Origin: Flavobacteriaceae bacterium
GTDB lineage: Bacteria; Bacteroidota; Bacteroidia; Flavobacteriales; Flavobacteriaceae
Direction of reading: 5' to 3'
NCBI GenBank assembly: GCA_965224465.1
Contig: OZ245049.1
Span: 3,060,001-3,092,000 of the forward strand
DNA length: 32,000 bases
Part shown: piece after piece, positions 4,231-31,769 of the stretch
Numbering within the stretch: the stretch's first letter is position 1
Layout of the letters: each line of letters starts with the position of its first letter
Translations under genes and position numbers: made by a program
Notes under the pieces: model-generated
Seen by the model: only the letters and a program-made list of their open reading frames with translations
Database searches by the model: none
What the model was told of the DNA's origin: nothing

Positions 4231-4249
4231 GAGATTTTTTTTAGTATTT

Positions 4250-4840: not shown

Positions 4841-4870
4841 GAGTCGTTTTTTGAGTTGATTGTTTTGTGC

Positions 4871-5287
4871 CTATATCCACCTGTCTTGCCGTTGTAAAAT
4901 GGCAGGTTTTATTTTATTGAAATTGTATCCGATTAAACTGAGGTTACATATAAAAAGGAAAAAATCGAAAGCTACGTACGATGCGTTTCTTGAAATAAAA
5001 ACGTGTACCATTACCACACATAATAGGATAGGTGTAAGCATGATGCTCCCCAATAAATAGGTTCGTTTAAAAATTAGAAGTATTCCACATAATAATTGAA
5101 AAAAACCTACAAAATATAGAAAACCTGTATGTTGTAAGAGTTCGTAGAATTCTATAAAATGAATGCTGCTTCCTGCGGAGCTTTCTTTAAAAGCAGCGGA
5201 GTTATAAGGAAGGAATAGTTTTTCTATGCCGTGAAATATAAAGAGCAGCCCTAAGAGAAAACGAATACTATATATAATTATTTTCAT
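4871..5287 (-). CDS. DoxX family membrane protein
   Basis: 138 aa with four hydrophobic helices and an N-terminal FIFHGIEKLF motif typical of DoxX. Confidence 0.7.
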   Translation of the reverse strand: MKIIIYSIRFLLGLLFIFHGIEKLFLPYNSAAFKESSAGSSIHFIEFYELLQHTGFLYFVGFFQLLCGILLIFKRTYLLGSIMLTPILLCVVMVHVFISRNASYVAFDFFLFICNLSLIGYNFNKIKPAILQRQDRWI

Positions 5288-5329
5288 AAGATTTAATAAT
5301 GGTTAATCACTGTTTGGATATGAGAACGT

Positions 5330-5420
5330 ATACTTATTACAATTTGAAATGATCCCTATAAATAGTTTCTTTTATGTTCTAGTGTTGTTAAAAAATAGAA
5401 CGATAGCTAAGGCCATCCAT
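5330..5420 (-). repeat. R1 interspersed repeat, copy b (inverted orientation)
   Basis: The reverse complement reads ...gctatcgttctattttttaacaacactagaacataaaagaaactatttatagggatcatttcaaattgtaataagta, which aligns along the full R1 core. Confidence 0.7.
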
Positions 5421-5508
5421 CTATTTTCTGCCTAGCTAAAACAAAAAATAATTCCATTTCTACAGTCACTCGGAAATGTATTTGAATTGTGTATTAGCAG
5501 AAAAAAAA

Positions 5509-9338: not shown

Positions 9339-10331
9339 ATGACAAAATACAGGTTAGATTACAACGATATAGAAGATTTTTTTTTTGAAGCTAAAAACAG
9401 TTTTTATTCGGTAGATGAGTGTGGTACCCAAATCTTAGATTTCTCATATAATTATAAATCTATAAAGGGGCAGTACAAAGGGATTATTACCGATAATTTT
9501 AAGATTAGCTTTGGCAATGGAATTATTATAGATGATACGGTTATTGATTTTTCGTTTGAAGGAGAGACCGTAGAAATGCATTTTGCATTGGATGGGTTTT
9601 CTAATACAAAAATCACTAATATGAAAGATGATTTTTCAATTAAAACCAATGAACATAATATTTTTTATGGGAATGATATAAAGGGTGAATTGCAATGGGG
9701 CTCTAAAAACATGTCCTTTTTTAAAATAAATTTACAGCCGTGTTTTTTTGAGAAATACTTACCCAATGAATGTCTGTTTAGTACCTTTAAAAAGCTTATT
9801 CAGAATAAAGAAATTGGTTTTTTAAATCGATTTAATTATCCTATTACGCGCCAAATGCGTGCTGTTATTTGCGAAATAATACACTGTGAATGTAAAAATC
9901 AGTACCGATTGCTCTTTTTAGAGTCTAATATTTTAGTGCTTCTGTTATTGCAATTAGAGCAAATTAAAAGCTACAGTTTAAATACAATAACCTCTAAAAA
10001 ATCAAAAACTGTTTTGGAAAAAATGTATTATGCTAAAAATATAATTCTAGAAAAAATAAATAATCCGATGTGTTTATCTGATTTAGCGAGAGAGGTTAAC
10101 ACGAACGAGTGCACTTTGAAAAAGGAATTTAAAAATTTATTTGGCACTACGGTTTTCTCTTATATAAGGGATGTTAAAATGCAAAAAGCGAAGAAAATGT
10201 TGCTTTATCAAGAGCTATCGGTCAATGAGGTTTCTGATGTTTTGGGCTATAAAAACCCACAGCATTTTTCAACCGCTTTTAAAAAACAATACGGGGTAAC
10301 ACCGAGTAATGTAAAAAACATATATCGTTAA
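9339..10331 (+). CDS. AraC family transcriptional regulator
   Basis: C-terminal double HTH (LSDLAREVNTNECTLKKEFKNLFG ... VSDVLGYKNPQHFSTAFKKQYGVTPS). Divergent from the TonB receptor operon. Confidence 0.9.
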   Translation: MTKYRLDYNDIEDFFFEAKNSFYSVDECGTQILDFSYNYKSIKGQYKGIITDNFKISFGNGIIIDDTVIDFSFEGETVEMHFALDGFSNTKITNMKDDFSIKTNEHNIFYGNDIKGELQWGSKNMSFFKINLQPCFFEKYLPNECLFSTFKKLIQNKEIGFLNRFNYPITRQMRAVICEIIHCECKNQYRLLFLESNILVLLLLQLEQIKSYSLNTITSKKSKTVLEKMYYAKNIILEKINNPMCLSDLAREVNTNECTLKKEFKNLFGTTVFSYIRDVKMQKAKKMLLYQELSVNEVSDVLGYKNPQHFSTAFKKQYGVTPSNVKNIYR

Positions 10332-10361
10332 AAACCTCCCTTTATTCCACTTAAAATTAGT

Positions 10362-10442
10362 TGCGATTGTTTTTCAACAACGATAAAACGTAAAAGAAAC
10401 TATTTATATCGGTTATTTTGGATTGTAGTTGGTATAAGTAAC
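10362..10442 (+). repeat. R1 interspersed repeat, copy c
   Basis: tgcgattgtttttcaacaacgataaaacgtaaaagaaactatttatatcggttattttggattgtagttggtataagtaac. Located just after the AraC stop. Confidence 0.7.
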
Positions 10443-10475
10443 TGCTAGCATAAGATAAATTGATATGTTTGTAGG

Positions 10476-16589: not shown

Positions 16590-16670
16590 AGAATAGCTAG
16601 CACAGGTCAATACATAAACTATTAATATTGGATATTTTGGATTGTAATTGGTATTACTTAATTTAGAGTA
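16590..16670 (+). repeat. R1 interspersed repeat, copy d (5' part degenerate)
   Basis: ...gctagcacaggtcaatacataaactattaatattggatattttggattgtaattggtattactta aligns with the 3' two-thirds of R1. Confidence 0.6.
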
Positions 16671-17863: not shown

Positions 17864-18080
17864 GAATGTCGTTGCCTAATTGGCTGCCGAGTTTTATTTG
17901 CGCTATCGATTATGGTCAACTTGTGCCACTTTAAAAGATCAAGTTCAATTAAATTATTGCCCAATACACTTGCTCCGATGGACTTAAAAAAATCATCACG
18001 AAACATAAAAGAAGCAATCGTAATGAGAAAAATAAATAATTTTATGATTTGTTTAGGGGGAATATGGATGGATATCCTTT

Positions 18081-18344
18081 GCTATCGTTCTATTTTTTAA
18101 CAACGCTAGAACGTAAAACAACCTGTTTATATCGGTTATTTTGGATTTTAATTGGTGTTAGGTTATGCTTCTCCAAAAACCACAAAGATTTACACCAAGA
18201 CCATCGAGATAAACAATAAATAATTATTGGACCGCTTGAAAATTTAAAAAATTTGAATACTTTTAACAAAAAAACGACACATAACCCTAAACTATTATAG
18301 ACATAACGTCAATTTTTGGAAGTTTATGGATGATATACGGGTGT
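18081..18344 (+). repeat. R1-long: R1 core plus tyrosine-recombinase 3'-end remnant plus shared leader (cassette 1 left flank)
   Basis: R1 core 18081-18155. 18155-18223 then reads VLGYASPKTTKIYTKTIEINNK*, which is the ...LGHxSxKTTEIYTH... tail (including the catalytic Tyr) of a tyrosine recombinase. Stops lie immediately upstream, so there is no recombinase body. The shared block ends with gatatacgggtgt (18332-18344). Paralogous to 20252-20522. Confidence 0.8.
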
Positions 18345-18346
18345 AA

Positions 18347-19042
18347 TATGTTGCAAGACGAAAATTAGAATTAAATTATTTGGTAAAATTTTAAATAAGG
18401 AAATTGAGAAATTAAAAGATGGAGGTCGAATTGATGAAAACTTAATGCATAATCTTATTTTTCAACAGAGTAGTGATAACCCAGAACTTGGCGATTTATG
18501 GCTAATAATTGAAGATTTTATATATTTCAAAGGATTTTTTTAAAGAAAATTAGATAAAATTGAAATAGAAGGAGATTTGCTATTCAACAAAGAGTTCTCT
18601 ACAGAAGAACAAAGATTTCTCAACTCTTTGGGCGAAAAATGATTAACAAAACGACCAGGCATCTTAATTATTCCCTGACGAAGGAAAATGTATAATTATT
18701 AAATTTAAAGGACCTAACACAAATATTTCAGAACATTTAACGCAAATATATTTTTTTACAACTCTAATACGTAATTATACAAATGATAAATTCCAAGTAA
18801 CTACATTTTATGGCTATTTAATTTGAGAAAGTATGGAAGATAGAGACGTTAGAGGTCGATTTAGTAGGTTTGAACATTCTTATCATTTAGATTATTGGTT
18901 TCTACCATATGAAAATGTAAACAGTTTTGATAATCGATCAAATGGTTCAATTTACAAAGAAGTCTTAAAGTATAGTACAATATTAGAATGTGTTAAACTT
19001 AGAAATAGAATTTTCATTAATAAATTTGAAAACACAAAATAA
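18347..19042 (+). pseudogene. Decayed, internally deleted gene of the GHKL-ATPase/PD-(D/E)xK nuclease class (only a C-terminal nuclease-like region remains)
   Basis: Joining three frames gives LFGKILNKEIEKLKDGGRIDENLMHNLIFQQSSDNPELGDLWLIIEDFIYFKG / KLDKIEIEGDLLFNKEFSTEEQRFLNSLGEK / KRPGILIIPDEGKCIIIKFKGPNTNISEHLTQIYFF...FYGYLI / MEDRDVRG...RNRIFINKFENTK*. There are at least 4 frame disruptions (near 18541, 18640, 18676 and 18823). The motif order parallels the C-terminus of ORF 20544..22535. Confidence 0.6.
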
Positions 19043-19050
19043 GGAAATCA

Positions 19051-19893
19051 ATGGAAAACCAACAAAATAAACTAATCGTATTCCAAGATAAAAATATTCG
19101 TAGAATTTGGCACGAAAACGAATGGTTTTATGCTGCTGTTGATGTTATAGAAGTCCTCACAGAAAGTTCTAAACCAAGAGATTATTGGTATCGAGTAAAA
19201 AAAAGAGCCTCTGAAGATGAAAAAATGGAGTTGTCGACAATTTGTCGACAACTGAAGGTTCAATCGAAAGATGGTAAAAAATATAATACTGATTGTTCTA
19301 ATACTGAAGGTGTTTTTAGAATAATACAATCAATTCCATCACCCAAAGCAGAACCATTTAAAAGATGGTTAGCAAAAGTAGGAAAAGAAAGGTTAGATGA
19401 AATAGAAAATCCTGAGTTGGCTCAAGAGAGAATGAAAGAACTCTATGAACAAAAAGGATATCCTAAAGATTGGATTGATAAACGATTGAGAGGAATTGCC
19501 ATTCGTCAAAACCTAACAGATGAATGGAAGCAAAGAGGGATAAAAGAACATAGTGATTATGCTATTTTAACTGCTGAAATATCAAAAGCCACTTTTGGAA
19601 TGACACCAAGCGAATACAAAGAATATAAAAATATACCTATAAAATCTAAAATCAATTTACGTGATAATATGGACGATTTAGAATTGATTTTTTCAATGTT
19701 AGGAGAACGTGTTACTACTGAAATATCAAAAAAAGAAAAACCGAACACCTTTTTAAAAAATAAAAAAGTAGCACAAAGAGGAGGGAAAGTTGCAGGAAAT
19801 GCATTAAAAGAAACTGAAAAGGAATTAGGAAGAAATGTTATAACAGACAAAAATAATTTAGATAGCGATAACCAATTAAAATTAGACGAATAG
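19051..19893 (+). CDS. Bro-N domain-containing protein (phage antirepressor-like)
   Basis: N-terminal Bro-N pattern (VFQDKNIRRIWHENEWFYAAVDVIEVL ... EGVFRIIQSIPSPKAEPFKRWLAKV). The C-terminal region (YAILTAEISKATFGMTPSEYKEYK) is common in Bro-N/KilA-type mobile-element proteins. Confidence 0.8.
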   Translation: MENQQNKLIVFQDKNIRRIWHENEWFYAAVDVIEVLTESSKPRDYWYRVKKRASEDEKMELSTICRQLKVQSKDGKKYNTDCSNTEGVFRIIQSIPSPKAEPFKRWLAKVGKERLDEIENPELAQERMKELYEQKGYPKDWIDKRLRGIAIRQNLTDEWKQRGIKEHSDYAILTAEISKATFGMTPSEYKEYKNIPIKSKINLRDNMDDLELIFSMLGERVTTEISKKEKPNTFLKNKKVAQRGGKVAGNALKETEKELGRNVITDKNNLDSDNQLKLDE

Positions 19894-20004
19894 CCAACGA
19901 ATAAGCCATACATCTTTTTAATTCACTAAAGCCCTAGTCGCAAACCTAAAATTGCAAAAGAGTATGTCTTGCGACGCTATCAGCAGGATGTAAAGAATTA
20001 CCAG

Positions 20005-20262
20005 TTGCCAATAACTAAACGTTCGTGCGGTGCGCGCCCAGTACGAACATCCTGTTGACTATACCGGCTCAAAAGATGATACTATGAGGTTGGCGCAATT
20101 AATTAAGAGGCTATCAACAAAGACCTTAATAGGTACCACCTATTTTTAGGTCATTTTCTCTCACGCTCTTTTGTGGGGATATCTTTTTACTGTTTTTAGA
20201 TACGGATAAGTGTTGGTCAGCAGTATTTTGGCATGCGTTTCCCCTTTCGTGGCTACGTTTGT
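20005..20262 (+). repeat. R2 conserved ~260-bp element, copy 1 (candidate structured RNA / cassette right flank)
   Basis: Aligns end to end with 23408-23672. GC-rich hairpin 20021-20028/20041-20048, long-range helix 20053-20058/20114-20119, and an identical hairpin gacct..taggt-acc-accta..aggtc (20122-20152) followed by a U-rich tract. Confidence 0.75.
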
Positions 20263-20522
20263 TTTTTAACAACGCTAGTACGTAAACCAACCTATTTATA
20301 TCGGTTATTTTGGATTGTAATTGGTGTTAGGTTATGCTTCTCCAAAAACCACAGAGATTTACACCAAGTCCATCGAAATTAACAATAAAAAGATTAAAGG
20401 ACCGCTTGAAAACTTAAAAAATTTGAATACTTTTAACAAAAAAACAAATAATCACTCATTCTACTCTAGCTATGTTAGAAATAACAGCTACTCTAAGAGT
20501 TCTATAGTCGATATACGGGTGT
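20252..20522 (+). repeat. R1-long: R1 core plus tyrosine-recombinase 3'-end remnant plus shared leader (cassette 2 left flank)
   Basis: R1 core 20252-20325. 20324-20443 reads VLGYASPKTTEIYTKSIEINNKKIKGPLENLKNLNTFNKK (recombinase C-terminal tail), preceded by an in-frame TAA. It ends with gatatacgggtgt (20510-20522), 22 nt before the GHKL gene ATG. Track ORF 20321..20572 is this remnant, not a gene. Confidence 0.8.
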
Positions 20523-20543
20523 TGCCAGTAATACCAAAACCAA

Positions 20544-22535
20544 ATGCAGAAAGAAGCGAAAATCACATCTAAAGGAATTAAAAAAGTTTTAAAGAACTAT
20601 AATCCTGCTTCTTCTTTTGCCGAATATATTTGGAATGGTTTTGACGCTAAGGCAACCAAAATTGAGATAAACTACGATTCGAACGAATTAGGTAGAATTG
20701 GCTTTATTCAAATTAGAGATAACGGTACAGGAATTGACCTTGAAAACTTGGCATACAAGTTTGATAATTTCTATGAATCCGAAAAGTCCATTCAAATTCA
20801 ATCACCAAAACATTCTTCAATTCTACACGGTAAAAACGGAGTTGGTAGACTTACATTTTTCACTTTTGCTAACGATGCTAAATGGACTACACTTTATGAA
20901 AATAAAGGGATTAAAGGAGGAACAATAAGTATCTCAGCAGAAAACTTAAAAGTTTATGACAACAATTTTGTAAACACAGATTCAAAATTTACTGGAACGA
21001 CTGTTTACTTCACCAACTTGCTTATTGGCCTAGATACATTTCAACAAGAATTGACAAACTATATAAAGAAAGAGTTTTGTTGGTTTTTAGAATTAAACAA
21101 AGAGTATTCAATTCTAATAAATGGAATACCACTAGATTACTCTGATTTAGTTGCAGATAGAGATTCTTTTGAATTAGAAAACAGCAACAGTTTTTTCAAA
21201 ATTAAATATGTCCAATGGACTGAATTATTAAATAAGGAACACTCTAAGTTTTATTTTCAAGATTCTAGTGGAAAAGAAATATATAAAAACTTCACTACAC
21301 TTAATAAAAAAGGAGATTATTACTATCACAGTATTTACATTGAAAGTGATTTCTTTTCACATTTTGATTTTACAAAAAATGAAGAAAGCAATCAAATAAG
21401 TTTGTTTGCTAAAGCAAAATCATCTGTAGAATACAAATACTTAATTAGTAAACTTAACGAATACTTAAAAACCAAACGAAAGCCCTACTTAAGGGCATAT
21501 GCTGAAAGGCTGGTAATGGATTATGAATTAGATGGTATAATACCAACTTATAATAACTCTTGGGAGCAGATTAGAAGTAAAGAGTTAAAAGATACTATTA
21601 TTGGATTATATGAAGTCCAACCTAAAATATTCTCTAATTTAAACCTTGAACAAAAAAAGATATTCGTTCAATTTATAGACTTACTACTTGACTCTAACGA
21701 AAGAGAAAATATTTTCAAAATAATAGAAGGTGTTACCAAACTCGAACCAGAAGAAAGAGAGGACTTATCAAATATTTTACACAAAACAAGTTTAAACAGA
21801 GTCATAGATACTATTAAATTGATTGAAGATAGATACAAAACATATTATCAATTAAAAGAACTTGTGTTTAATGAAGAACTAGGAGCCAAAGAAATTCCTC
21901 ATTTACAAGATTTAATAGAAAATCATTATTGGCTTTTCGGTGAAGAATACCATTTGGTTACAGCTGCTGAACCAAAATTTGAAGAAGCATTAAAAAGATA
22001 TATTTATAAAACAACAGGTGAAATTAAAGACCAAAAAATAAACCATATCGACAAAAACAGAGAAATGGATATTTTTGCTTGCAGACAACATCAAAAAGAC
22101 GCAAAAATTGAGAATATCGTTCTTGAATTAAAACATCCTAAAATCCAACTAGGCGAAAAAGAGTACTCACAAGTAATGAAATATCTAAGTGTTATAAGTT
22201 CAAGACAAGAATTTAACGCACCAAATATGTCTTGGAAATTTTATCTCATAGGCAATAAATTTAATACTAGTCAATTTATTGAGAGACAGATTAAGACAAA
22301 CAAAAACCACGGAGAAGAGTCTTTAGTATACAATGATGAAGGTAGAATTAAGGTTTACGTTAAAACTTGGAGCGAAATATTTACTGAGTTTGAATTAAGA
22401 CATAATTTCCTTGATGAAAAATTAAAATTGGAAAGAGAGAAACTTTATGAATTAAGCAAAGACGCTGACGAAATTGTAGAAAAGGCATTAAATAACACAG
22501 CTATTAGCAAACCTGAAATTGTCGTTCCAAAATAG
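20544..22535 (+). CDS. GHKL (HATPase_c_3/MORC-like) ATPase fused to a C-terminal PD-(D/E)xK, Shedu/DUF4263-like nuclease domain
   Basis: N-box EYIWNGFDAKATKIEI, G1 IRDNGTGID, G2 HGKNGVGRLTFF. C-terminus: NHYWLFGEEYHLV ... REMDIFACRQ ... IVLELKHPK ... QVMKY (a D ... ExK arrangement). No signal peptide. Confidence 0.75.
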   Translation: MQKEAKITSKGIKKVLKNYNPASSFAEYIWNGFDAKATKIEINYDSNELGRIGFIQIRDNGTGIDLENLAYKFDNFYESEKSIQIQSPKHSSILHGKNGVGRLTFFTFANDAKWTTLYENKGIKGGTISISAENLKVYDNNFVNTDSKFTGTTVYFTNLLIGLDTFQQELTNYIKKEFCWFLELNKEYSILINGIPLDYSDLVADRDSFELENSNSFFKIKYVQWTELLNKEHSKFYFQDSSGKEIYKNFTTLNKKGDYYYHSIYIESDFFSHFDFTKNEESNQISLFAKAKSSVEYKYLISKLNEYLKTKRKPYLRAYAERLVMDYELDGIIPTYNNSWEQIRSKELKDTIIGLYEVQPKIFSNLNLEQKKIFVQFIDLLLDSNERENIFKIIEGVTKLEPEEREDLSNILHKTSLNRVIDTIKLIEDRYKTYYQLKELVFNEELGAKEIPHLQDLIENHYWLFGEEYHLVTAAEPKFEEALKRYIYKTTGEIKDQKINHIDKNREMDIFACRQHQKDAKIENIVLELKHPKIQLGEKEYSQVMKYLSVISSRQEFNAPNMSWKFYLIGNKFNTSQFIERQIKTNKNHGEESLVYNDEGRIKVYVKTWSEIFTEFELRHNFLDEKLKLEREKLYELSKDADEIVEKALNNTAISKPEIVVPK

Positions 22536-22565
22536 AAAGTTTTGTCCATCTTCCAATAGTATTCA

Positions 22566-23396
22566 ATGACCGAAAACAAATACACCAAAGAAACAGACAA
22601 AATTGTAAGTGATTTAATCACTAATCGGATTTTAAGACATACAATTCAGTTTTTCAAAAAAGGAGAGAAACGACTTGAACCATTTGGCTCAGGTGTTTTT
22701 GCGAAAATACATAATGACTATTTTATTTTAACTGCATCACACGTAGCAGATTTTTTTGAAAAAAATCCTAAAGAAGACTTACTAATTCGTGTAAATAAAA
22801 AATCTTATATCAATGTTCTTGGAGATATAAAGTATACTGATATTAAAAAAAGTAAGGGTGTCGATTTAGCTTATATCAAGGTTGACAAACAAATGATTGA
22901 GCCTTTATGCAACCCCTACATTCCTTTAGAAATAGATAAAATAAGAAGTCATCACAATGTATTTCACGCAATGAATTATTGTGTTTTGGGCTATCCTGAA
23001 ACGAATATCACTAAAGATGATGAGCCTTTAGATACTGGAGCGTCTTTTTATTTAACGAGCGCGAGTAAATATAATAGGTATCAAAAATATGGATATGATA
23101 AAAAAGACTATATCATAGTCGATATGCAAGGGAAAGGAAAAGATGTGAAAACGAATAAAAAATCAAAAATAAACACTCACTTTTATGGAATAAGTGGTTG
23201 CGGACTTTGGCTTTTGCTCATCTACAAAAATCCAATTACCGGCAAAGAAGAAATTGATTACCGATTAGTCGGAATAATGTCCGAATTTAAAAACTCAAAA
23301 TATTTTTGTTTAATAGCTAATAAAATTAAACTTTTGATTGAGGCTTTAAAAGTTATCGAAAAACATAAATTTAAAGAAATAAAAATAGAGTATTGA
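22566..23396 (+). CDS. Cytoplasmic trypsin-fold (S1-like) serine protease
   Basis: Catalytic triad in canonical order: His in FILTASHVADF, Asp in GVDLAYIKVD, Ser in YGISGCGLW. No signal peptide. Lies 30 nt downstream of the GHKL gene on the same strand. Confidence 0.75.
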   Translation: MTENKYTKETDKIVSDLITNRILRHTIQFFKKGEKRLEPFGSGVFAKIHNDYFILTASHVADFFEKNPKEDLLIRVNKKSYINVLGDIKYTDIKKSKGVDLAYIKVDKQMIEPLCNPYIPLEIDKIRSHHNVFHAMNYCVLGYPETNITKDDEPLDTGASFYLTSASKYNRYQKYGYDKKDYIIVDMQGKGKDVKTNKKSKINTHFYGISGCGLWLLLIYKNPITGKEEIDYRLVGIMSEFKNSKYFCLIANKIKLLIEALKVIEKHKFKEIKIEY

Positions 23397-23407
23397 AAGA
23401 GTACTAC

Positions 23408-23672
23408 TGGCAATAACTAAGTGTTCGTGCGGTGCGTAGCACCCAGCATGAACATCCTGTTGACTATACCGGCTCAAAAGATGATACTATGGGGATTGCG
23501 CGAAGTTTATTAAGAGGCTATCGACAAAGACCTTAATAGGTACCACCTATTTTTAGGTCATTTTCTCTCACGCTCTTTTGTGGGGATAGTTTTTTACTGT
23601 TTTTTGATACTGATTATTGTTGGTTAGTAGCGTTTAGGCATGCGTTTTCCATTACGTGGCTACGTTTATTTT
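23408..23672 (+). repeat. R2 conserved ~260-bp element, copy 2
   Basis: Starts 12 nt after the protease stop. Same helices as copy 1 (23423-23430/23446-23453 and 23458-23463/23521-23526). The substitutions relative to copy 1 preserve pairing through G-U wobbles on the + strand. Confidence 0.75.
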
Positions 23673-23775
23673 TTTTGTTCGGTTATTAGTACATGCTTTT
23701 ATTCGTTGCAACCAATAGGCAGGAGGTCCTCTTCCGTTAAGCAGATAGACTGTTTTGAGTTTCCCTGTCTTACAA

Positions 23776-23829
23776 TTGTTCTATTTTTTAACAACGCTAG
23801 AACGTAAAACAACCTATTTATATCGGTTA
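23776..23829 (+). repeat. R1 interspersed repeat, copy g (3'-truncated)
   Basis: ttgttctattttttaacaacgctagaacgtaaaacaacctatttatatcggttat, after which similarity stops. It marks the boundary to the PAAR locus. Confidence 0.7.
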
Positions 23830-24096
23830 TAAGATAAAGGTCAAATCGGTACGGTAATTAGATGAATAAAAATACAGGGAAATATAATCTGAAAACCACT
23901 ACTGCGTATAACTATTTTTTGTACTTTTGATTACTGCTTATAGATATATACGTCTTAATAATTAAAATAACCCAATGCTACATCGTAGGTTAAATGGATA
24001 TGCCTTCTTGTTTAGCACTGCTACTGTGAGAATATGGGATTATAAGTAATTTAACACACTCAAGCGGTAGAACATAACATAAAAAACAAATAAATT

Positions 24097-24558
24097 ATGC
24101 CAGGACCAGCAGCAACAATATCGCACATGCACACATGCCCTATGTATAGTGGGACAAGCCCACATACTGGCGGCCCCATTATAGGCCCGGGAGTGCCAAC
24201 AGTTTTAATAGGAGGAAAACCTGCCGCAGTAATGGGGGATCAATGTACCTGTTCGGGACCACCCGATGTAATTGTAGAAGGTGTTTCTACCGTATTAATT
24301 GGTGGGAGACCTGCAGCTACTATGGGATCAAAAACAGGTCATGGAGGCGAAGTAAGCATTGGAAATCCTACCGTACTTATTGGTACAAGATGTAGTGCTC
24401 CTACCGCAATAATGCCTTTGAGTCAAATACCTTTTCCTAAAATCACTCTAATTAATAGAATATTAGGGAATACAAGGCAAGCGCAAGAAAACCAAGAAAA
24501 AATAAAAGAAGAAGCTAAGAAAAATGGATATCTAAGCCTTGTTGATTTTAGTATTTAA
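24097..24558 (+). CDS. PAAR domain-containing protein (contractile-injection spike tip)
   Basis: Repeated PAAR blocks: PTVLIGGKPAAVMGD, STVLIGGRPAATMGS, PTVLIG. Cys/His-rich N-terminus (HMHTCPM, CTCSGPPD). Confidence 0.9.
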   Translation: MPGPAATISHMHTCPMYSGTSPHTGGPIIGPGVPTVLIGGKPAAVMGDQCTCSGPPDVIVEGVSTVLIGGRPAATMGSKTGHGGEVSIGNPTVLIGTRCSAPTAIMPLSQIPFPKITLINRILGNTRQAQENQEKIKEEAKKNGYLSLVDFSI

Positions 24559-24569
24559 TTATAAATGTT

Positions 24570-25640
24570 ATGAAAGTAGAGTACCCATTATTACCTTCTG
24601 ATAAAAAAGATGCTGAAGAATTTACTAAAGAAGAACTTATTTCTAAATATTATGGGCAAAAAAATCGCTTTGGTTTTTTTCCTATAGGACGTTTAAACTC
24701 TTGGCATGGAGGGATTCATATAGAAAGTTCAAGTAGTAAAGTTAGAGCTGTTGCAGATGGAAGAATAATAGCTTATAGAATTACAGAGGATCTTTTGACT
24801 GAAAAAGAAAGGGATAAAAAGTACTCTAACAGTTTTATTCTAATACAGCACAATTTTGAAACTCCTAAAAAACAAAAGTTGCGTTTTTATAGTTTGTATA
24901 TGCATTTACAAACTAAAAATCAATTAGAAAGTGGGTCTGGAAAACATATCCCAAATTTATATGCTAAATATATTGCAAAAGTAACAGGAAAACAGCAACG
25001 AGGTGGACTTAATGCAAGATCTGGTTCTGAAACATATGTTAGCAGTAGTAAAAAATGGGGGAAAATAAAAATGGTTATTTATAAAGACGAAATTGTTAGT
25101 TATGATATATCCCCTATAACTGGAGAAAAAGGGGAAAAGATAATGGGAGCTTCTTTTGCAGATGACCATTGGATTAATGACCATGATTATAAATATATCC
25201 CAATTATATATAAAGGACATAGCGATTTATTTATAGCAAGTTCAGGAACTAGAGTTAAAAATAAAGGTGATGGATGTGTGCAAATAGCCACAGCTGAAGA
25301 CTTCGATAAAAATGACATAAAAGGAGCTATTGTAAGAAATAAACCCAGTACAGGAAGTCGTACCTATGTTCGAACTATTAAAAAAGGAACTAATTTAGGG
25401 CTAGTTGAAATAGTCAATAGTGAATGGGTTAAGTTAAAAGGGAAAGAAGAATATATTCAGAAAAAAGCCCTTAAAATTTCTAAAAAACTAGGCGATCAAT
25501 TTGTGTATAATAAAACAAGTGACACAGCTAATTTAAATAAAGTGCAAAACGTTGATATGCCTATAAAAGCGGGAGATATAATAGGTGTTCCAAGTAAATT
25601 TGAATTGAAAAGCAAGAGCAATATAGTACGGTTCATTTAG
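24570..25640 (+). CDS. Polymorphic effector, N-terminal segment (M23/LytM-like peptidase first half); frameshifted relative to the next segment
   Basis: NSWHGGIHIES...VRAVADGRIIAY and RFYSLYMHL resemble the first two M23 blocks. PIKAGDIIGVPS resembles the pre-HxH block. No signal peptide. Ends at a TAG inside the overlap with the next open frame. Confidence 0.6.
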   Translation: MKVEYPLLPSDKKDAEEFTKEELISKYYGQKNRFGFFPIGRLNSWHGGIHIESSSSKVRAVADGRIIAYRITEDLLTEKERDKKYSNSFILIQHNFETPKKQKLRFYSLYMHLQTKNQLESGSGKHIPNLYAKYIAKVTGKQQRGGLNARSGSETYVSSSKKWGKIKMVIYKDEIVSYDISPITGEKGEKIMGASFADDHWINDHDYKYIPIIYKGHSDLFIASSGTRVKNKGDGCVQIATAEDFDKNDIKGAIVRNKPSTGSRTYVRTIKKGTNLGLVEIVNSEWVKLKGKEEYIQKKALKISKKLGDQFVYNKTSDTANLNKVQNVDMPIKAGDIIGVPSKFELKSKSNIVRFI

Positions 25641-27640
25641 AGGTTTTTACAGACGATGCCGAAGTAGAAAATTTTATAAATAATAATAAGAAAGATGATG
25701 ATCGTAAAACATATGATGTAGCAAGCGGAAAAACATTAAAAAAGGCTAAGCCAAGTAACAATTTAAAATTAGGAAATAAAATAAAAATTAAACAACGTAA
25801 AGGTAATTATGTTGAAATAGGATTTGGAAAAATAATTGCTATTATTGAAAAGAAAAATCTAAAAGGGTACAAAAATCATAAAGGTTACCCGATAAAACTT
25901 GACGTTTTTGATGACGTTAATGTACTGTATCATGGGTATTTAAAAAAGAATAGTTTATTAAAATGGATAACAGATCAAACTTATGTTAAAAAAGTTGACA
26001 ATAAGTTTGTAACATGCCCTAAAAATGAAGAACCAGGTGATAATTATCCATACAGAAGGTTGTCATTTAATGTTGAAGGAAGTAGTTTATGGGTTGATTC
26101 ATTTGTGTTGCCAGCAGAAACAGCCAATGAAAAAGATGATTGGGTAGCATTAACCCAAGATGTAACTCAAGTATATGAAAAAGAACCAAAAGAAACCGAT
26201 AATGATATTGTGACTACAGAAGCGTTTTCTGTACGAAAAGTAACAGCTACTAAGGATAAAGATGGTATAGAATGGTTACAAGTAAAAGGTAAAAGAAAAC
26301 ATAAAGATAAACAAGGTTGGATAAAATTAAGTGAACTAACAGAGATAAACCCATATGAATGGAAAGGTGATACGTATGGATGGCAAATCCTTAATGATAC
26401 CGGATCACAATACTTTTATCAATTTGGAGATTCTGTAGAAAATACCGAGCCTCATAATTTTGTTACTACATTATGGGAGCAATTAAAGCAATACGATAGC
26501 GATAATGATAAAGTGTTAAGCGTATATGAGTTACAAAAAGCAAGAAGTTCAGAAGCAGGAGCTAAAATACTAAGTAAATTTATATGTAAGCATTTTAGTG
26601 AGTGGGATACTAATAGCAAAATAAGAGATTTTAAAACTGAGGTAGAAAATATTTATAAAAAAGGAATAGAGCAAGAAACAGTTAAAGCTGAGATAACAGC
26701 TTTAGAAGAGGCAAGAGATAATAAAATAGCACTCTTAGAAGATAAAATTAATAACCTTTGTTTTTGGGATAAAATCCAAACAGGAGATCTTGTACCTACC
26801 AGTAAACGTAAACAAGATTATATTGACAAACATAAACCTGTGCGTACAAGTATGTTACCGAAAGGCACAAGTAAAGAAGAGATTCGTTTAGCAAAAGAGT
26901 TTGATGACTTAGAGAAAGAAAGAACTCCGAGAGAGTTTCCTGCTGATTCTAATGTGTATCACTTCCACCCTATTGCATTTGTGGAACAGATGAAGATGAT
27001 ATGTGCTGCTACTACACCGCCTTGGATGGAGGTGGCTTTAGCAGAAGCTAAAAAAGCTAAGTTTATTAGAGAAACTTTGAGTCCAACATCTGAAATGGCT
27101 AATAAATACCATACTTATGTAGGGATACCTAAAGCTACTGGTTCTACAGCTTGGTGTGCCTCTTTTGTTAATTGGTGTTTAAACGAATCTGGTCAAAAAA
27201 GTGTAAAATCAGCGGGTTCACAAAGTATACTTTGGAATGAAGGAAAACTATTTAAGCGTATTAATGAACCGGTATATGGTTGTATTGTTTTATTAACTAA
27301 TTATGTTAAAAGTAATGGTAAACAAACTTCTAATGGACACGTTACTTTTTTATACGGAATTGATTCTAACGATAATTTAATATGCTTAGGAGGAAATCAA
27401 CGTGATACAATAAAGTTTTCTAGATATAAAAAAAAAGGAGTTTTAGCTACTTTTCGACAGTATCAAAAATCAGAAGGAGGTAAAGTTTTTGTGGAGCAAA
27501 AATTTAATGGCTTCTTTTTACCAATTGATTATTCTCCTACAAATAGTAAACAACCAGATGTTGTAAATATGAAAAAATTAAATAATGAACTGGCTGGTAA
27601 AGCTGTGAAATCTGATGGGGAAAATGAAAAAACTACTTAG
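25604..27640 (+). CDS. Polymorphic effector, C-terminal segment: end of the M23-like domain, EF-hand-like loop, and a TIGR02594/NlpC-P60-superfamily peptidoglycan amidase-like domain
   Basis: The frame is open from 25604, but the first canonical start is TTG at 26060. STVHLEVFTDD continues the M23-like domain. DSDNDKVLSVYE (26495-26530) fits an EF-hand loop. C-terminus: PPWMEVALAE...STAWCASFVNWCL...NGHVTFLYG...LGGNQRDTI, which is the TIGR02594 pattern. Confidence 0.7.
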   Translation: MEKQEQYSTVHLEVFTDDAEVENFINNNKKDDDRKTYDVASGKTLKKAKPSNNLKLGNKIKIKQRKGNYVEIGFGKIIAIIEKKNLKGYKNHKGYPIKLDVFDDVNVLYHGYLKKNSLLKWITDQTYVKKVDNKFVTCPKNEEPGDNYPYRRLSFNVEGSSLWVDSFVLPAETANEKDDWVALTQDVTQVYEKEPKETDNDIVTTEAFSVRKVTATKDKDGIEWLQVKGKRKHKDKQGWIKLSELTEINPYEWKGDTYGWQILNDTGSQYFYQFGDSVENTEPHNFVTTLWEQLKQYDSDNDKVLSVYELQKARSSEAGAKILSKFICKHFSEWDTNSKIRDFKTEVENIYKKGIEQETVKAEITALEEARDNKIALLEDKINNLCFWDKIQTGDLVPTSKRKQDYIDKHKPVRTSMLPKGTSKEEIRLAKEFDDLEKERTPREFPADSNVYHFHPIAFVEQMKMICAATTPPWMEVALAEAKKAKFIRETLSPTSEMANKYHTYVGIPKATGSTAWCASFVNWCLNESGQKSVKSAGSQSILWNEGKLFKRINEPVYGCIVLLTNYVKSNGKQTSNGHVTFLYGIDSNDNLICLGGNQRDTIKFSRYKKKGVLATFRQYQKSEGGKVFVEQKFNGFFLPIDYSPTNSKQPDVVNMKKLNNELAGKAVKSDGENEKTT

Positions 27641-28073
27641 TATACTGGTACTACTTTTTGGAATGTCTACTTGTAAGAAAGTTTCTAAAATCAATCCTGC
27701 AAAAGTAATAGTAGTTAACGAACAGCTTGAAAAGATAGTTTCGGAAAAAGAACAAACTATTGAATATTTTTTAAAACAATTACAAATTGCAGTTGAAAAA
27801 AAAGATATTGATAACATAGAAAATAAAATAATATTTCCGCTAAAGTTTAGTAGTGGTGGAGAATCTATTTTTTACAATAACTATCAAGAGATTAAAGAAG
27901 ATGGAAGCAATGAAGAATTTTCAAAAATACTAGAAGCAAAATTTATAGGAATTGAGGATGGATTTTATATGATAGAATATCAAGATCCACAAAGTATAGA
28001 TTATTTTATTACTTTTTATTTTATTAAAAGTATTGATGGTTTTAAATTAAAGAGTTTTTCAGAACCTTATTAA
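27615..28073 (+). CDS. Lipoprotein, candidate cognate immunity protein 1
   Basis: Signal peptide plus lipobox (LLFGMSTC). Overlaps the effector 3' end by 26 nt. Small periplasm-facing protein immediately after a cell-wall-targeting toxin domain. Confidence 0.6.
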   Translation: MGKMKKLLSILVLLFGMSTCKKVSKINPAKVIVVNEQLEKIVSEKEQTIEYFLKQLQIAVEKKDIDNIENKIIFPLKFSSGGESIFYNNYQEIKEDGSNEEFSKILEAKFIGIEDGFYMIEYQDPQSIDYFITFYFIKSIDGFKLKSFSEPY

Positions 28074-28117
28074 AAAAACTAAACGGTGAATTAATTAAAA
28101 ATATTGAAGATGCTTTT

Positions 28118-28399
28118 GTGGGAGCTGTAATAGTTTTCTCGCATTCCCATGTAGCTTTTATTGCTGGACAATCTAAAGACAAAAAAAGTTTAATTTATTT
28201 AGGAGGTAACCAATCAGATGGAGCTACAAATGATGGACCGGGAAAAAGAACAATTTGTACAAATCCAAAATCTAAATCAGGTTTTAATACAAAGTTTTGG
28301 TTAGTAAAACCAAAAAATTATCCTTTAAATTCAAATAAAGAATTACCTATAATATCTTCAGATGGAAAAGAATTAGGTTATAAAGAAACACATAACTAA
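28118..28399 (+). pseudogene. Orphan 3' fragment of a second TIGR02594-like toxin domain (lacks the Cys-bearing N-terminal half)
   Basis: GAVIVFSHSHVAFIAG...LIYLGGNQSD aligns with GCIVLL...NGHVTFLYG...LICLGGNQRD of the main effector. No WCA-type nucleophile block and no pre-toxin junction upstream. Confidence 0.6.
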
Positions 28400-28401
28400 T
28401 T

Positions 28402-29040
28402 ATGAAAACATATAATAATATTAGATTACTATTAATTGCAATAATTTTCTTAACAATTATTTCTTGTAAGAATAATAAAGAAACCCCTAAAAACAATCAT
28501 GTTTCAATATATTTAAAAACAAAAACGGAAGCAAAAAAACAAGACAGTACAAAAAAACAAATATTTGATGACAAAGAATTAAAAAATATTTTAAAACAAC
28601 AATTAGCGAAGGGTAAATCTGCTTTGTATGATGATTCTTTTGATGTTGTGACCTATAAATATAGTCAGAAGGATTTAGATGTCATTCTACCTTTTTTGAA
28701 GGAAAATCTAATCGGTTATGATGTTCCTTCAAATATAAAGTTTAAAAAAATAATCAAACAGATATTTGGTAGAACTGTTGATTTTGCAAGTAATTCAAAT
28801 TATTTATATGTGAATTTTAATAATAAATTAGATAGAGCTAAAAAGTTTTATAGAAATGATAATTCAATTCAAATAAACCCTTTCGCTATATTTATTATTA
28901 AAAAGGGTAATTTTATAACACCTCTTTATTCTGTAGCAGAGATTTTAAATTACAAAAATATATATCCAGAAATATCTAAATTTGAAAATAAAGTTAAAAT
29001 CAATCAAAAAAATAAAAATGGTGAATCAATAAAGGGCTGA
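28402..29040 (+). CDS. Lipoprotein, candidate immunity protein 2, 3' end interrupted by IS30
   Basis: Signal peptide plus lipobox (LTIISC). Starts 2 nt after the orphan fragment. Its stop codon TGA (29038-29040) is at the IS terminal inverted repeat. Confidence 0.55.
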   Translation: MKTYNNIRLLLIAIIFLTIISCKNNKETPKNNHVSIYLKTKTEAKKQDSTKKQIFDDKELKNILKQQLAKGKSALYDDSFDVVTYKYSQKDLDVILPFLKENLIGYDVPSNIKFKKIIKQIFGRTVDFASNSNYLYVNFNNKLDRAKKFYRNDNSIQINPFAIFIIKKGNFITPLYSVAEILNYKNIYPEISKFENKVKINQKNKNGESIKG

Positions 29041-30160
29041 ATTCAACTTATAAACGCAACTTTTTGGTTAAACAATAATTGATTCATTACAAATATAGGG
29101 TTTTGATATGAAAACCTTTTCCTAGGCCTTCTATTTAATTTTCCTTCCACCTGTTTTATCATCTGCTTAGTTAATATCGAAAAGTCACTTCCTTTAGGGA
29201 AATATTGCCGAATAAGCCCATTTAAATTTTCATTAGATCCTCTTTCCCATGAATGGTAAGGATGTGCAAAATAATAATCGATTCCTAAAAATTCAGCTAC
29301 TTTTTTATGTCCTGCAAACTCTTTTCCGTTATCAGCTGTTATAGTGTTTATATACGGTATCCAATCTTCTAAAAGCTCATTAATAGCAGCTGTTACAACA
29401 GAAGATTCTTTAGATGCTATTTTTTTCATCTTTAGCATCCCAGAAGCCCTGTCATTGATTGTAAGAATGGCTTGATGATGATTTTTTCCAATTATTAAAT
29501 CCACTTCTAAATCTCCAAAACGTTCTCTTTTCTCCACTATATCTGGTCGTTTTTCAATACTAATTCGATCTTTAATAATACCACGTGAGTCCTTGAATGC
29601 CCCTCGTTTCCTGTACTTCCTTCCTTGTCTTCTTAAATGAGTATAGAGTGTGCCTTTATGCTTCTTATCTTGCCAGATATGCTGATAAATACGTTCTACT
29701 GAAACAACTTCTTTTCCTTGCTTAGTAAGTATTCCAACCACTTGTTCTGGACTATAATCATCACGTAACAGCTTTTCAACCTCGCTTCTTATCTTCTCAG
29801 TAAACCTAATGTGCTTTCGCTTTTTCTTATGTCTATCCTTCCACTTTCTATGTGCTAATTCGTATTCATAGGAGCCGCTACGAGCATCGCAATTACGTTT
29901 GCATTCTCTACTTATAGTGCTTTTATGTTTCCCTATAGCCAAGGCTATTTTGGACTTAGAATACCCCTGTGATAACATACAGGTAATTGTGTATCTTTGT
30001 TCTTTGGTTAAATGTGCCATACTACTTCTTTTTCAGAGACTTGAGGGCGTAAGGTAACTATTCCATCAAAACATGAAGGAGAGGTGACTCTCTTTCTGTT
30101 TTGAAAAATAAACCTTAGAAACTCTCAAATCTAAGAAGTTGCATTTACTACTTGAATTTA
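29038..30160 (-). mobile_element. IS30-family insertion sequence (~1.12 kb)
   Basis: Terminal inverted repeats: aattcaacttataaacgcaactt (29040-29062) against the reverse complement of aagttgcatttactacttgaatt (30136-30158), about 19/23 matches. A single transposase ORF lies inside. The exact ends and the target-site duplication are not resolved. Confidence 0.8.
29043..30020 (-). CDS. IS30 family transposase
   Basis: N-terminal HTH (GYSKSKIALAIGKHKSTISRECKRN). DDE region (LEVDLIIG ... ITADNGKEF ... HSWERGSNENLNGLIRQYFPK). Confidence 0.95.
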   Translation of the reverse strand: MAHLTKEQRYTITCMLSQGYSKSKIALAIGKHKSTISRECKRNCDARSGSYEYELAHRKWKDRHKKKRKHIRFTEKIRSEVEKLLRDDYSPEQVVGILTKQGKEVVSVERIYQHIWQDKKHKGTLYTHLRRQGRKYRKRGAFKDSRGIIKDRISIEKRPDIVEKRERFGDLEVDLIIGKNHHQAILTINDRASGMLKMKKIASKESSVVTAAINELLEDWIPYINTITADNGKEFAGHKKVAEFLGIDYYFAHPYHSWERGSNENLNGLIRQYFPKGSDFSILTKQMIKQVEGKLNRRPRKRFSYQNPIFVMNQLLFNQKVAFIS

Positions 30161-30161
30161 A

Positions 30162-30371
30162 GAGGTATTTAAATGGAGTGAAGACAAAGAAAATAATATT
30201 TCAAATAATTTAAAAACATTTGTAGCTAGAAATAAATATCTTTTTAATAACGATAAAAGCCAATTAGATTGGCTACTAAAAAACGACGAAGAGTTTATGG
30301 AAGCGTTGATAAGGGTTTATAATTATTCTAAAGACCAAAAACATAAAGATTGGTATGCTAAAAGAAATTAA
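30162..30371 (+). pseudogene. Displaced 3' end of the IS-interrupted immunity gene (probable)
   Basis: 69-codon open frame with no start codon beginning right at the IS end: EVFKWSEDKENNISNNLKTFVARNKYLFNNDKSQLDWLLKNDEEFMEALIRVYNYSKDQKHKDWYAKRN*. Frame continuity across the IS could not be reconstructed exactly. Confidence 0.4.
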
Positions 30372-30466
30372 ATACAAATACGAACACATTGATAAACATA
30401 AATATGGACACATCAGTATGCCTCCTAAAGGATTGAGTTAAAAGACAATTTTCAACTAATTCTAAT

Positions 30467-31090
30467 GTGTATCATTTTCACCCGATTGCATTTGTGGAAC
30501 AGATGAAGTTGATTGCTGGGGAACTTGATATTAAATCTGGTATTGAGTGGTTAGACTCTATTGCTATAAATCAGGAAAAAGCAGGGGTAAAATCTAATTA
30601 TAAGGTTTTATATGTTCAAGAAGGGCCTAAATTGAGAACGTCAGATTCAGATGAAGCCTTAAAATATTCCGATTGTTCAGAATTAGTCTGTAGATTTTTA
30701 AATAAAATAGGGTGGAGTAAAAAAGTTAAACACTTAAACACTTCTGCTTTGTATTCATTTGCGCAGAAAAACCCAAATTTATTAGAAAAACATGACAAAG
30801 ATTATGTTCCTCAAAAAGGAGGTATTTTTCTTTGGGCTAACAAAGCAGGTTCAAATGGTCATACGGGAATTGTTGTAGATTATGACAGTAAAATTGATGT
30901 TGTAACTACAATTGAAGCTATTAATTTTAAAGAAAGACCTTATGGTGCTACAAGTAGTATCAAATTACAAGGAGTTGTTAAAGCTAAGTGGAAAAGAAAA
31001 TCAAGTCACTTAATGAGTCATCCATTAATAACTACTAGATATGAAGCACACCCTTGTAGATTCTATTCTCCTAAAAAATCAGATAAATAA
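30467..31090 (+). CDS. Orphan toxin module: NlpC/P60- or CHAP-like cysteine peptidase domain preceded by the conserved pre-toxin junction
   Basis: Begins NVYHFHPIAFVEQMK, which is 47/50 nt identical to 26946-26995 of the main effector. Nucleophile-like YSDCSELVCRFL and GSNGHTGIVVDY. No N-terminal delivery region. A degenerate, stop-containing homology block (30388-30445) lies upstream. Confidence 0.65.
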   Translation: MYHFHPIAFVEQMKLIAGELDIKSGIEWLDSIAINQEKAGVKSNYKVLYVQEGPKLRTSDSDEALKYSDCSELVCRFLNKIGWSKKVKHLNTSALYSFAQKNPNLLEKHDKDYVPQKGGIFLWANKAGSNGHTGIVVDYDSKIDVVTTIEAINFKERPYGATSSIKLQGVVKAKWKRKSSHLMSHPLITTRYEAHPCRFYSPKKSDK

Positions 31091-31100
31091 TATTTACACT

Positions 31101-31769
31101 ATGAAAAAAACAAATTATTATATCTTATTAGGATTGATATTTTTATTAATATGTTGTAAAAATAAGGTTCCTAAAAGTGATTTATTGGGTAGTGAAAATA
31201 CTAATCATTTAATTGAAGAAAATGACCGCAAAGCAGACAGTTCATTAATTTTAGAAAAAGCTATAAATTTTGATGAGATTTATAATATTCTTTTAAATTC
31301 ATACCAAAAAAGAAATAACAAATTAGTTAAAAAGCTAGATAATAATTATTTGGAAAAATTAATTATAAAAAATAAAATTTCAAAAATTAATATAGATAAG
31401 TACGTGCAAATCAATTTCTTCTTAACTTTTTTAGATCAAAATAAAGATTACGGCGAATCATTATATGATGTTTTACCAATTAATGAGTTTGAGCCATCAA
31501 AGGATGCATATAAATATGTTGAAAGACCTTTTAATTATTTAGAAAATAATATAGAAGAAATAATAGAGAAAGTTGATTTAAAAAAAAATGATCCATTATG
31601 GGTTAAATATTACCTAAGTGAAGAAGGAATAAATAATATGCTTACGTTCTATGACAAGCAAATTAATTTTAAAAAATACTCTACTCTACTTAATCTTCTG
31701 AAGAAAGAACCTTTATTAATCCAATTCGAAAATACAGAACGAATAATTAAAGAAATAAGCGAAAAATAA
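31101..31769 (+). CDS. Lipoprotein, candidate immunity protein 3
   Basis: MKKTNYYILLGLIFLLICC lipobox. I prefer the ATG at 31101 to the track start at 31041, which overlaps the toxin module. Directly follows the orphan toxin. Confidence 0.6.
   Translation: MKKTNYYILLGLIFLLICCKNKVPKSDLLGSENTNHLIEENDRKADSSLILEKAINFDEIYNILLNSYQKRNNKLVKKLDNNYLEKLIIKNKISKINIDKYVQINFFLTFLDQNKDYGESLYDVLPINEFEPSKDAYKYVERPFNYLENNIEEIIEKVDLKKNDPLWVKYYLSEEGINNMLTFYDKQINFKKYSTLLNLLKKEPLLIQFENTERIIKEISEK

Follow-up and report, generated by a model that had tools for sequence, protein, structure and literature searches.

A conserved intergenic repeat as a candidate 3' flank module of integron-like cassette arrays in marine Flavobacteriaceae

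Whether a conserved intergenic element that follows genes in two places acts as an RNA, as a DNA site or as something else is the question raised by the 32,000-nt stretch of a Flavobacteriaceae genome analyzed here (contig OZ245049.1 of assembly GCA_965224465.1; hereafter the window). The original prediction for this element, R2, was a transcribed structured RNA or a strand-specific folded recombination site of about 260 bp at the 3' end of each cassette. Both copies were recovered where they had been predicted (window 20003-20267 and 23405-23674). Their alignment, at 89.7% identity, has about 261 ungapped columns, of which 234 match and 27 differ (15 transitions and 12 transversions), plus two short indels, and copy 2 matches copy 1 in nhmmer with an E-value of 1e-58. 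The predicted length fell short, as copy 2 extends to about 23776 and the element is longer. On the evidence given below, R2 has about an even chance of being a conserved non-coding 3' flank module of an integron-like, recombinase-associated cassette array in marine Flavobacteriaceae.

According to the alignment of its copies, R2 is a modular element of about 395 nt, consisting of a conserved head, a subfamily-specific middle and a tail. The highly conserved head of about 100 nt opens with AATAACTAAG, followed by the hairpin H1 and then by ..GTTGACTATACCGGCTCAAAAGATG..TGGGGATTG. The middle features a terminator-like hairpin and occurs in four variants, which define the subfamilies A to D. These subfamilies have only the head in common, and a tail of ~180 nt is common to subfamilies A and B. 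Both window copies belong to subfamily A, whose middle comprises two hairpins, the third one of the original prediction and, behind it, a terminator-like one with a T tract. Copy 1 stands 110 nt behind the BroN ORF, lacks the final ~110 nt and runs directly into another repeat, R1, while the 276-aa ORF stops 16 nt ahead of copy 2 (Table 1).

The family of 24 copies comprises those of the window, of two Flavobacteriaceae MAGs and of marine metagenome contigs. Most of them were collected by one genome and one metagenome scan with 20-24-mers of the conserved core, followed by nhmmer on the matched DNA, and two further copies (L018 and L021) were obtained via protein look-ups. As the bait for most copies was the R2 head itself, those 20 bases are invariant by construction, and the sequences are few, closely similar and drawn from few lineages. 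Frequently, two or three copies are found per contig, 1-3 kb apart, or copies are located at contig ends. One candidate (L014) was rejected as a chance 20-mer match within a gene. Besides, two shortened variants were observed at L019 7836-7944 and L009 56-178, both with GCCTAG at the joint. One consists of only the hairpin 5' arm and loop fused to the tail, the other of only the hairpin loop, 3' arm and mid-head fused to the tail. R2 had no blastn match in known plasmid or phage DNA and no match in viral contigs, and no tRNA or tmRNA was found in the window.

Table 1. Features of the R2 locus (window coordinates).
Feature	Position	Strand	Remarks
Cassette cargo	20521..23410	+	HATPase_c_3 ATPase 20544-22535 and 276-aa protein 22566-23396
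Preceding cassette cargo	18345..20002	+	includes BroN / PDC-S13 protein 19051-19893
Array-side core ATATACGGGTGTTG	20511..20524	+	cassette-specific DNA starts after GTT
Second core copy ATATACGGGTGT	18333..18344	+	upstream of BroN cassette
XerD-like tyrosine recombinase gene, 3' fragment	20329..20452	+	..GYASPKTTEIYTKSIEINNKKIKGPLENL..; second copy 18160-18277
R2 copy 1	20010..20262	+	head and middle; tail truncated at T run where R1 begins
R2 copy 2	23412..23776	+	full length: head, middle, tail
Hairpin H1, copy 1	20019..20050	+	loop triplet GTA deleted
Hairpin H1, copy 2	23421..23455	+	10 + 5 bp, 2-nt bulge, loop GTA
ORF-like head frame	23421..23513	+	VFVRCVAPSMNILLTIPAQKMILWGLREVY, then stop; in-frame TAA at 23418-23420
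Terminator-like hairpin and T tract, copy 1	20159..20188	+	hairpin 20159-20178
Terminator-like hairpin and T tract, copy 2	23566..23595	+	hairpin 23566-23585
R1 repeat	20262..20328	+	abuts R2 copy 1
R1 copies	1-102, 5307-5453 (-), 10346-10465, 16616-16659, 18035-18160, 20199-20330, 23749-23850

The limits of the cargo in front of copy 2 can be placed exactly. This cargo is 92% identical to contigs L022-L027 and 84% identical to Cellulophaga lytica, with unrelated flanks, and the similarity ends at exactly 20521 and 23410. The left break reads GTT↓G(C/G)CAG in all four contexts (the arrow marks the break). In the window, it corresponds to the end of ATATACGGGTGTT↓G, i.e., to the GTT of a core 60 nt past a truncated XerD-like recombinase gene. 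The right break is located 2 nt before the R2 head, within what is elsewhere the spacer before gene 3. The pair of ATPase and 276-aa genes recurs in many contigs and in Cellulophaga lytica with a third gene next to it. In L022-L027, the pair belongs to a three-gene unit, the third gene encoding 281 aa, and the unit of the window is cut 14 nt past gene 2, at the R2 start. The junction past gene 3 in L022-L027 ends with ..CATATACGAGACGTT↓ and is followed by three different sequences.

The core ATATACGGGTGT(TG) is found about 60 nt past the recombinase 3' fragment (..LGHASPKTTEIYTK..KGPLENL). This layout is featured by the window copies c5 and c6, L002, L018, and L019/20, and in L001 the core and the upstream spacer are kept with no recognisable recombinase fragment. 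In all six of these core instances, similarity is lost directly after the core. L002 and L019/20 represent the same chromosomal site, adjoining cbiA, and their first cassettes differ. The recombinase P0041 occurs, identical and in full length, in three contigs, which stop or part from one another directly behind TATATACTAGTT↓, about 50 nt beyond its stop codon. A full-length recombinase relative of Mariniflexile ostreae (L033) is followed by the core ATATAC-AAGT-GTT↓ 40 nt past its stop and by cassettes with a helicase and then a reverse transcriptase, each ending in an imperfect palindrome of ~130 nt with ..TATAC-N6-GTT↓. The first palindrome folds with -27.8 kcal/mol on the top and -30.9 kcal/mol on the bottom strand (z -5.7 and -7.2), and the second folds weakly on either strand (z about -1.2).

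Since the cargo breaks at a core on its left and at the R2 start on its right, and different DNA follows the GTT, R2 can be read as the 3' flank of a cassette. The recombination site proposed by the original prediction is thus supported in its location, as R2 ends discrete cassettes in a recombinase-associated array, but not by a crossover within R2: all crossover points that could be mapped lie at the ATATAC..GTT cores. Moreover, the head is conserved for ~45 nt past the GTT that follows the palindrome, and therefore R2 cannot be a simple attC with a crossover at this GTT. The arrays of L022-L027 and of Mariniflexile do without R2, which makes it an optional part of such arrays.

The recombinase is represented in the window only by 3' fragments of ~40 codons, and activity in this genome therefore appears doubtful. 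An exhaustive search with the fragment returned mostly short proteins beginning at the same MLGH, plus full-length relatives of ~370 aa that are XerD- or integron-integrase-like. In Bacteroidota, the family numbers over 4900 members, and most of their contigs are short and break off in the array. The relatives are annotated as XerD or tyrosine-type, with named examples from Bacteroidales, Cytophagales, Marinilabiliales, and Flavobacteriales, and R2 was absent upstream of the full-length genes. All truncated fragments start with ..GTT↓AGG, at the M-L-G codons of the LGH motif (window 18157-18165 and 20326-20334, L002 ~207, L019 ~2792, and L018 ~581). The reading frame upstream of this point is kept in L018 alone, and this M is also the first residue of many 39-44 aa proteins in a library of 1.84 billion. 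These observations point to repeated recombination at a secondary site within the gene of the recombinase. Besides, a degenerate ATATAC..TT core may be present at window 23943-23957 (GATATATACGTCTTAAT), between R1 copy c7 and the PAAR gene.

R2 is closely linked to the ends of genes. In 15 of 23 copies, an ORF of 100 codons or more on the same strand has its stop codon close to the head, which starts between -45 and +25 nt from it, compared to 3.3% of random positions (P = 2e-17). The genes upstream are mutually unrelated and include HigBA, Fic, TPR, LRR, beta-helix, and BroN genes as well as the ATPase system. The cargo genes scanned against PADLOC or Pfam correspond to phage-defence or toxin-antitoxin types, and the BroN-domain protein (19051-19893) matches the PADLOC phage-defence candidate PDC-S13 with E = 2e-116. 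Both window copies further show the arrangement of an intrinsic terminator, with a G+C-containing hairpin and a T tract behind it, both on the upstream gene's strand. A U-rich tract had been placed behind the third hairpin (20122-20152). This hairpin is indeed the same in both copies, but the tract follows the next one (Table 1). A scan called terminator-like hairpins in subfamily A only, and the terminator stem is eroded, together with the third hairpin, in L001 and L018. The stem of subfamily B contains only 2 G-C pairs and was not called. A sigma-70 promoter candidate in the head (TTGACT-17-GATACT, score 9/12) was discarded, as its frequency is not above that in shuffles and the promoter type is the wrong one for Bacteroidota.

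The R2 head also serves as an insertion site. An IS110-family element (DEDD_Tnp_IS110 and Transposase_20, split ORF) is located inside the head of L021 (5100-6442), and the same IS end adjoins an R2 head in a second contig (L005 1456-1490). In both, AACTAAG on one side and GTGTTCG on the other delimit the insertion point, which coincides exactly with the 5' base of the palindrome. This suggests that an IS110-family element targets R2 heads. The IS110 family is known to target repeats, e.g., REP and attC sites, and the insertion fits a multi-copy palindromic target.

In the 3' flank reading, a cassette would reach from one GTT core (..ATATAC-N2-6-GTT↓) to the next and would comprise, in this order, the cargo genes, R2, further junction repeats (R1 and, in the window, the truncated recombinase gene) and the next core. 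The opening motif of the head would stop two reading frames. The 15-bp imperfect palindrome between AAC-N4 and N4-GTT would most likely serve as a protein-binding site, probably of the XerD-like recombinase or one of its partners, and may help to join the cargo to the array or to hold it there. The hairpin and T tract ~150 nt further on would end the transcription of the cargo, and the head would bear the signature of a short translated frame, present or past. Against this model, the palindrome is weak in copy 1 and L018, the terminator-like hairpin was called in subfamily A only, and the coding-like substitution pattern is left unexplained by a pure DNA site.

A structured plus-strand RNA, be it an element of the 3'-UTR or an sRNA derived from the cargo mRNA by processing, appears a very unlikely reading of R2. 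The pairings from which this was proposed exist. In H1 (GTGTTCGTGC GGTGC GTA GCGCC AA GCATGAACAT), gttcgtgc (20021-28) faces gtacgaac (20041-48) in copy 1 and gcatgaac in copy 2, the two differences of the 3' arm (20042 T/C and 20044 C/T) each turn a G-C into a G.U, and tgttga/tcaaca at 20053-58/20114-19 becomes tgttga/tcgaca in copy 2. This argument used just three of the 27 substitutions. An RNA is favored by the constant orientation along the upstream ORF, the terminator-like hairpin downstream, the fold of copy 2 (z -2.8 relative to shuffles, with minus strands at about 0) and two double-sided changes in one stem of the third hairpin (L018 and L001b) compared to 1.2 expected. In addition, the consensus H1 contains three G.U pairs, which the opposite strand would read as A.C, and the plus strand therefore pairs better (93.6% vs. 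77.6% of cells). The predicted strand bias holds at this consensus level but not for individual copies, in which specific changes give A.C mismatches in 15 cells. The H1 of L018, with three A.C and one G.U, folds on neither strand, and its A.C mismatches would pair on the minus strand only. As single-stranded DNA, H1 of copy 1 is weak (-7.0 kcal/mol, z -1.2), and H1 of copy 2, flanked by AAC-TAAG and TCCT-GTT, reaches -11 kcal/mol on the plus (z -4.1) and -9.2 kcal/mol on the minus strand. An RNA is further opposed by the fold of copy 1, which is no better than that of shuffles (z -1.0), and by the Rfam comparison, which gave 0 matches in the whole window at gathering thresholds. With E up to 10, Rfam 15 returned for 19850-20450 only chance-level hits to JA04 (17.7 bits vs. 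a threshold of 81) and FuFi-1 (11.8 vs. 59.6). RNAalifold found 0 compensatory pairs among 20 copies (covariation term -0.05) and retained only H1 and two small helices in the 20 heads. H1 has no double-sided change, and 93.6% of its cells are paired vs. 93.7% in shuffles. For the five proposed helices, counted in the five copies of subfamily A, no measure leaves the range of the shuffles, each measure for H1 and these helices being reached by 111-500 of 500 shuffles. The long-range helix UGUUGA/UCAACA, rejected for lack of a consistent partner across subfamilies, and the third hairpin are broken in L001a/b (the long-range helix in L001b) or replaced in subfamilies B-D, helices 2-5 altogether being broken in relatives or absent from B-D. 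Thus, breakage of the helices in further copies, which the original prediction itself had named as evidence against an RNA, is what the relatives display, and the claim of helix-preserving substitutions is not supported by these few and similar sequences. The sequence conservation of the head also lies far above any structural need. A group II intron domain V (hairpin of 34-35 nt with a 2-nt 3' bulge) was rejected as well, with no AGC triad, no GNRA loop, no Rfam intron match in the window and no reverse transcriptase in the Pfam-scanned window ORFs.

The wobble-preserving changes of H1 are at the same time synonymous third-codon-position changes in one reading frame, and in motif hunting such hairpin substitutions may equally be of this kind. 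This plus-strand frame begins with the first triplet of H1, a GTG, and is uninterrupted in nearly all copies (VFVRCVAPSMNIVLTIPAQKMLLWGLR..), and the peptide that it would encode includes VFVRCVAPSMNI(V/L)LTIPAQK. Its pN/pS of 0.29, compared to 1.05-1.76 in other frames and 0.40 in the antisense frame sharing third positions, was reached by just 1 of 2000 column permutations (p = 0.0005). Moreover, 8 of the 12 common head polymorphisms are synonymous and the remainder are mostly V/L/I/M swaps, the 3-nt deletion of copy 1 removes exactly one codon, and the frame is preceded by A-rich sequence, which is typical of Bacteroidota start sites. Nevertheless, it is unlikely that the head is, or recently was, a tiny gene of ~30 codons with its own terminator, be it an attenuator of the leader-peptide type or a small protein that travels behind each cargo, in which the hairpin substitutions would be synonymous codon changes instead of helix maintenance. 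A TAA or TAG stands in frame directly upstream, and the putative GTG start, situated inside the hairpin stem, is lost in 4 of 20 copies by changes that would be "synonymous". L018 is frameshifted, copy 1 of the window (20019-20087) has lost both GTG and ATG and contains a premature TGA, and the C-terminus varies by subfamily. Among 5.8 billion proteins, a profile search found one called ORF of 42 aa as the only homologue. A dead recombinase fragment yields a pN/pS of 0.18 with the same method, and the signal of the head can therefore be a legacy of past coding. It may be such a relic, with no parent gene found: the searches gave no longer protein with the head peptide, and on inspection the N-termini of the full-length recombinase relatives did not resemble it. 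Read-through of the upstream ORF into the frame was rejected, as the stop-to-head distances fall in all three phases. Distinctly unlikely is also a selfish non-autonomous repeat, MITE- or REP-like, that lands behind genes and has no role in cassette exchange. R2 has much in common with such repeats, being multi-copy, modular and mosaic, with subfamilies that share the head alone, deleted variants in L009 and L019, copies that break metagenome assemblies, and co-occurrence with the dispersed R1, itself also found beside ordinary operons. REP/BIME elements, in particular, are short, palindromic, multi-copy and mosaic intergenic modules behind genes, which are targeted by the IS110 family as R2 is and can stabilise or terminate upstream transcripts. 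However, R2 is far longer than REP/BIME elements, keeps strictly to the orientation of the upstream gene, occurs mainly in cassette arrays and is marked by the coding-like substitution pattern. The ends compared feature neither terminal inverted repeats nor target-site duplications, no empty site was seen and no partner transposase was found. The strict co-orientation, the proximity to upstream stops and the link to cassette arrays would be unusual for a transposing MITE.

As to the other parts of the junctions, R1 (TTTTTTAACAACGCTAGAACGTAAAACAACCTATTTATATCGGTTATTTTGGATTGTAATTGGT) is present in 7 copies in the window, and the copy at 23777-23830 directly follows R2 copy 2. Some copies adjoin ordinary operons for transporters and regulators, 54-5287 is enclosed by an inverted pair, and inverted partial copies also occur in L001 and L018. 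Compact R1 copies were rejected as attC-like hairpins, since they fold no better than shuffles, and the core region by itself shows no fold. CAAC-CTATT-TATATCG of R1 (20287-20302) is complementary to the core CGATATA-CGGGT-GTTG (20508-20524) ~190 nt downstream, with equal 5-nt spacers, and the recombinase fragment lies in between. This resembles the layout of the R and L boxes of attC and could be due to chance. In the metagenome array L004, two further repeat families, different from those of the window junctions, were observed in junctions of 640-760 nt (2985-3051, 6579-6645, and 9610-9676; 2844-2893, 4029-4078, and 6439-6488). Window 24097-31769 contains a PAAR protein, then pieces of CHAP-amidase-type effectors along with small ORFs resembling lipoproteins, and an IS30-like transposase is located there on the minus strand (29043-30020). 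The sister contig L017 (13061-17328) encodes one intact protein of 1264 aa, whose window counterpart consists of 356 aa, a gap and 526 aa, and a repeat at 26930-27000 and 30443-30513 encodes HFHPIAFVEQMK.

Among known systems, the R2 arrays resemble rAID-1, i.e., recombinase-associated acquired interbacterial defence clusters of Bacteroidales, whose 5' XerD-like recombinase, by definition, shares over 44% identity with BF9343_RS08045 (Ross et al.; bioRxiv 10.1101/471110; PMC12247911). Both share a XerD-family tyrosine recombinase at the 5' end, co-oriented AT-rich accessory genes behind it, conserved repetitive intergenic sequences "reminiscent of integrons" and assemblies that break within the array. 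At least two co-directional downstream genes with repetitive intergenic motifs, as in rAID-1, were found at window 18.3-24 kb and in L004, L011, L019, and L033. The phylum is the same, but the orders differ (Bacteroidales vs. Flavobacteriales), and so does the cargo, which consists of orphan T6SS immunity genes in rAID-1 and is phage-defence-like here (PDC-S13 BroN, ATPase system, HigBA, Fic, and helicase with reverse transcriptase). The window contains only truncated recombinase genes.

The resemblance to integrons is one of architecture. As with attC sites and the VCRs of Vibrio, co-oriented cassettes each end in a conserved repeat just past the stop codon, the cassette boundaries lie at GTT cores beside a recombinase gene, and the repeat is near-uniform within the lineage, as in sedentary chromosomal integrons. 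Toxin-antitoxin and defence cargo and the insertion of IS110/IS1111-type elements in the repeat are further common traits, and the ~130-nt imperfect palindromes of Mariniflexile, the first of them clearly more stable on the bottom strand, may be another. In contrast, the full-length recombinase relatives lie below the cut-off for integron integrases and lack the IntI-specific segment: the nearest ones reach 198 bits vs. 265 for TIGR02249, matching at profile positions 1-181 and at the C-terminus and not in the segment between. Unlike in integrons, the recombinase gene is co-oriented with the cassettes. Whereas an attC site is an imperfect palindrome of 57-141 nt with RYYYAAC and GTTRRRY boxes that is folded from the bottom strand, R2 measures about 395 nt, features a single hairpin of 35 nt, folds better on the top strand and has no such boxes. 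Its head reads AAC-N4-[15-bp stem, 2-nt bulge]-N4-GTT within 55 nt, the boxes being off consensus, and conservation runs past the hairpin-adjacent GTT. The arrangement around this recombinase is an integron architecture with a different recombinase and different sites. For Bacteroidetes, hardly any integrons are reported by IntegronFinder (PMC9024848). No paper joining integron-like, tyrosine recombinase, cassette, and Flavobacteri- came up in a full-text search, and an integron-like capture system was not found described for Flavobacteriaceae; R2 helps to mark it out.

Going beyond the 3' flank reading, it is conceivable, though somewhat unlikely, that the arrays represent a second integron-like gene-capture system in marine Flavobacteriaceae with an origin separate from classical integrons. 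It would consist of the XerD-like recombinase, the core ATATAC-N2-6-GTT↓ and cassette-side elements, with R2 as one portable family. Joined behind a stop codon, R2 would turn arbitrary genes, even parts of operons, into insulated and mobilisable cassettes by its stop motif, palindrome, frame and terminator. The many truncated "MLGH..." fragments would arise from cuts by the recombinase at the secondary GTT↓AGG within its own gene.

How integron cassettes gain their recombination sites is a long-standing question, and rAID systems shape gut ecology in the same phylum, Bacteroidota. In the Flavobacteriaceae array studied here, cassette boundaries are mapped to the nucleotide and tied to a family of XerD-like recombinases with very many members in Bacteroidota, and R2 is a conserved element directly behind diverse cargo, including a defence operon cut past its second gene. 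If R2 acts in the formation or exchange of cassettes, it would provide a tractable model for the conversion of a gene into a cassette.
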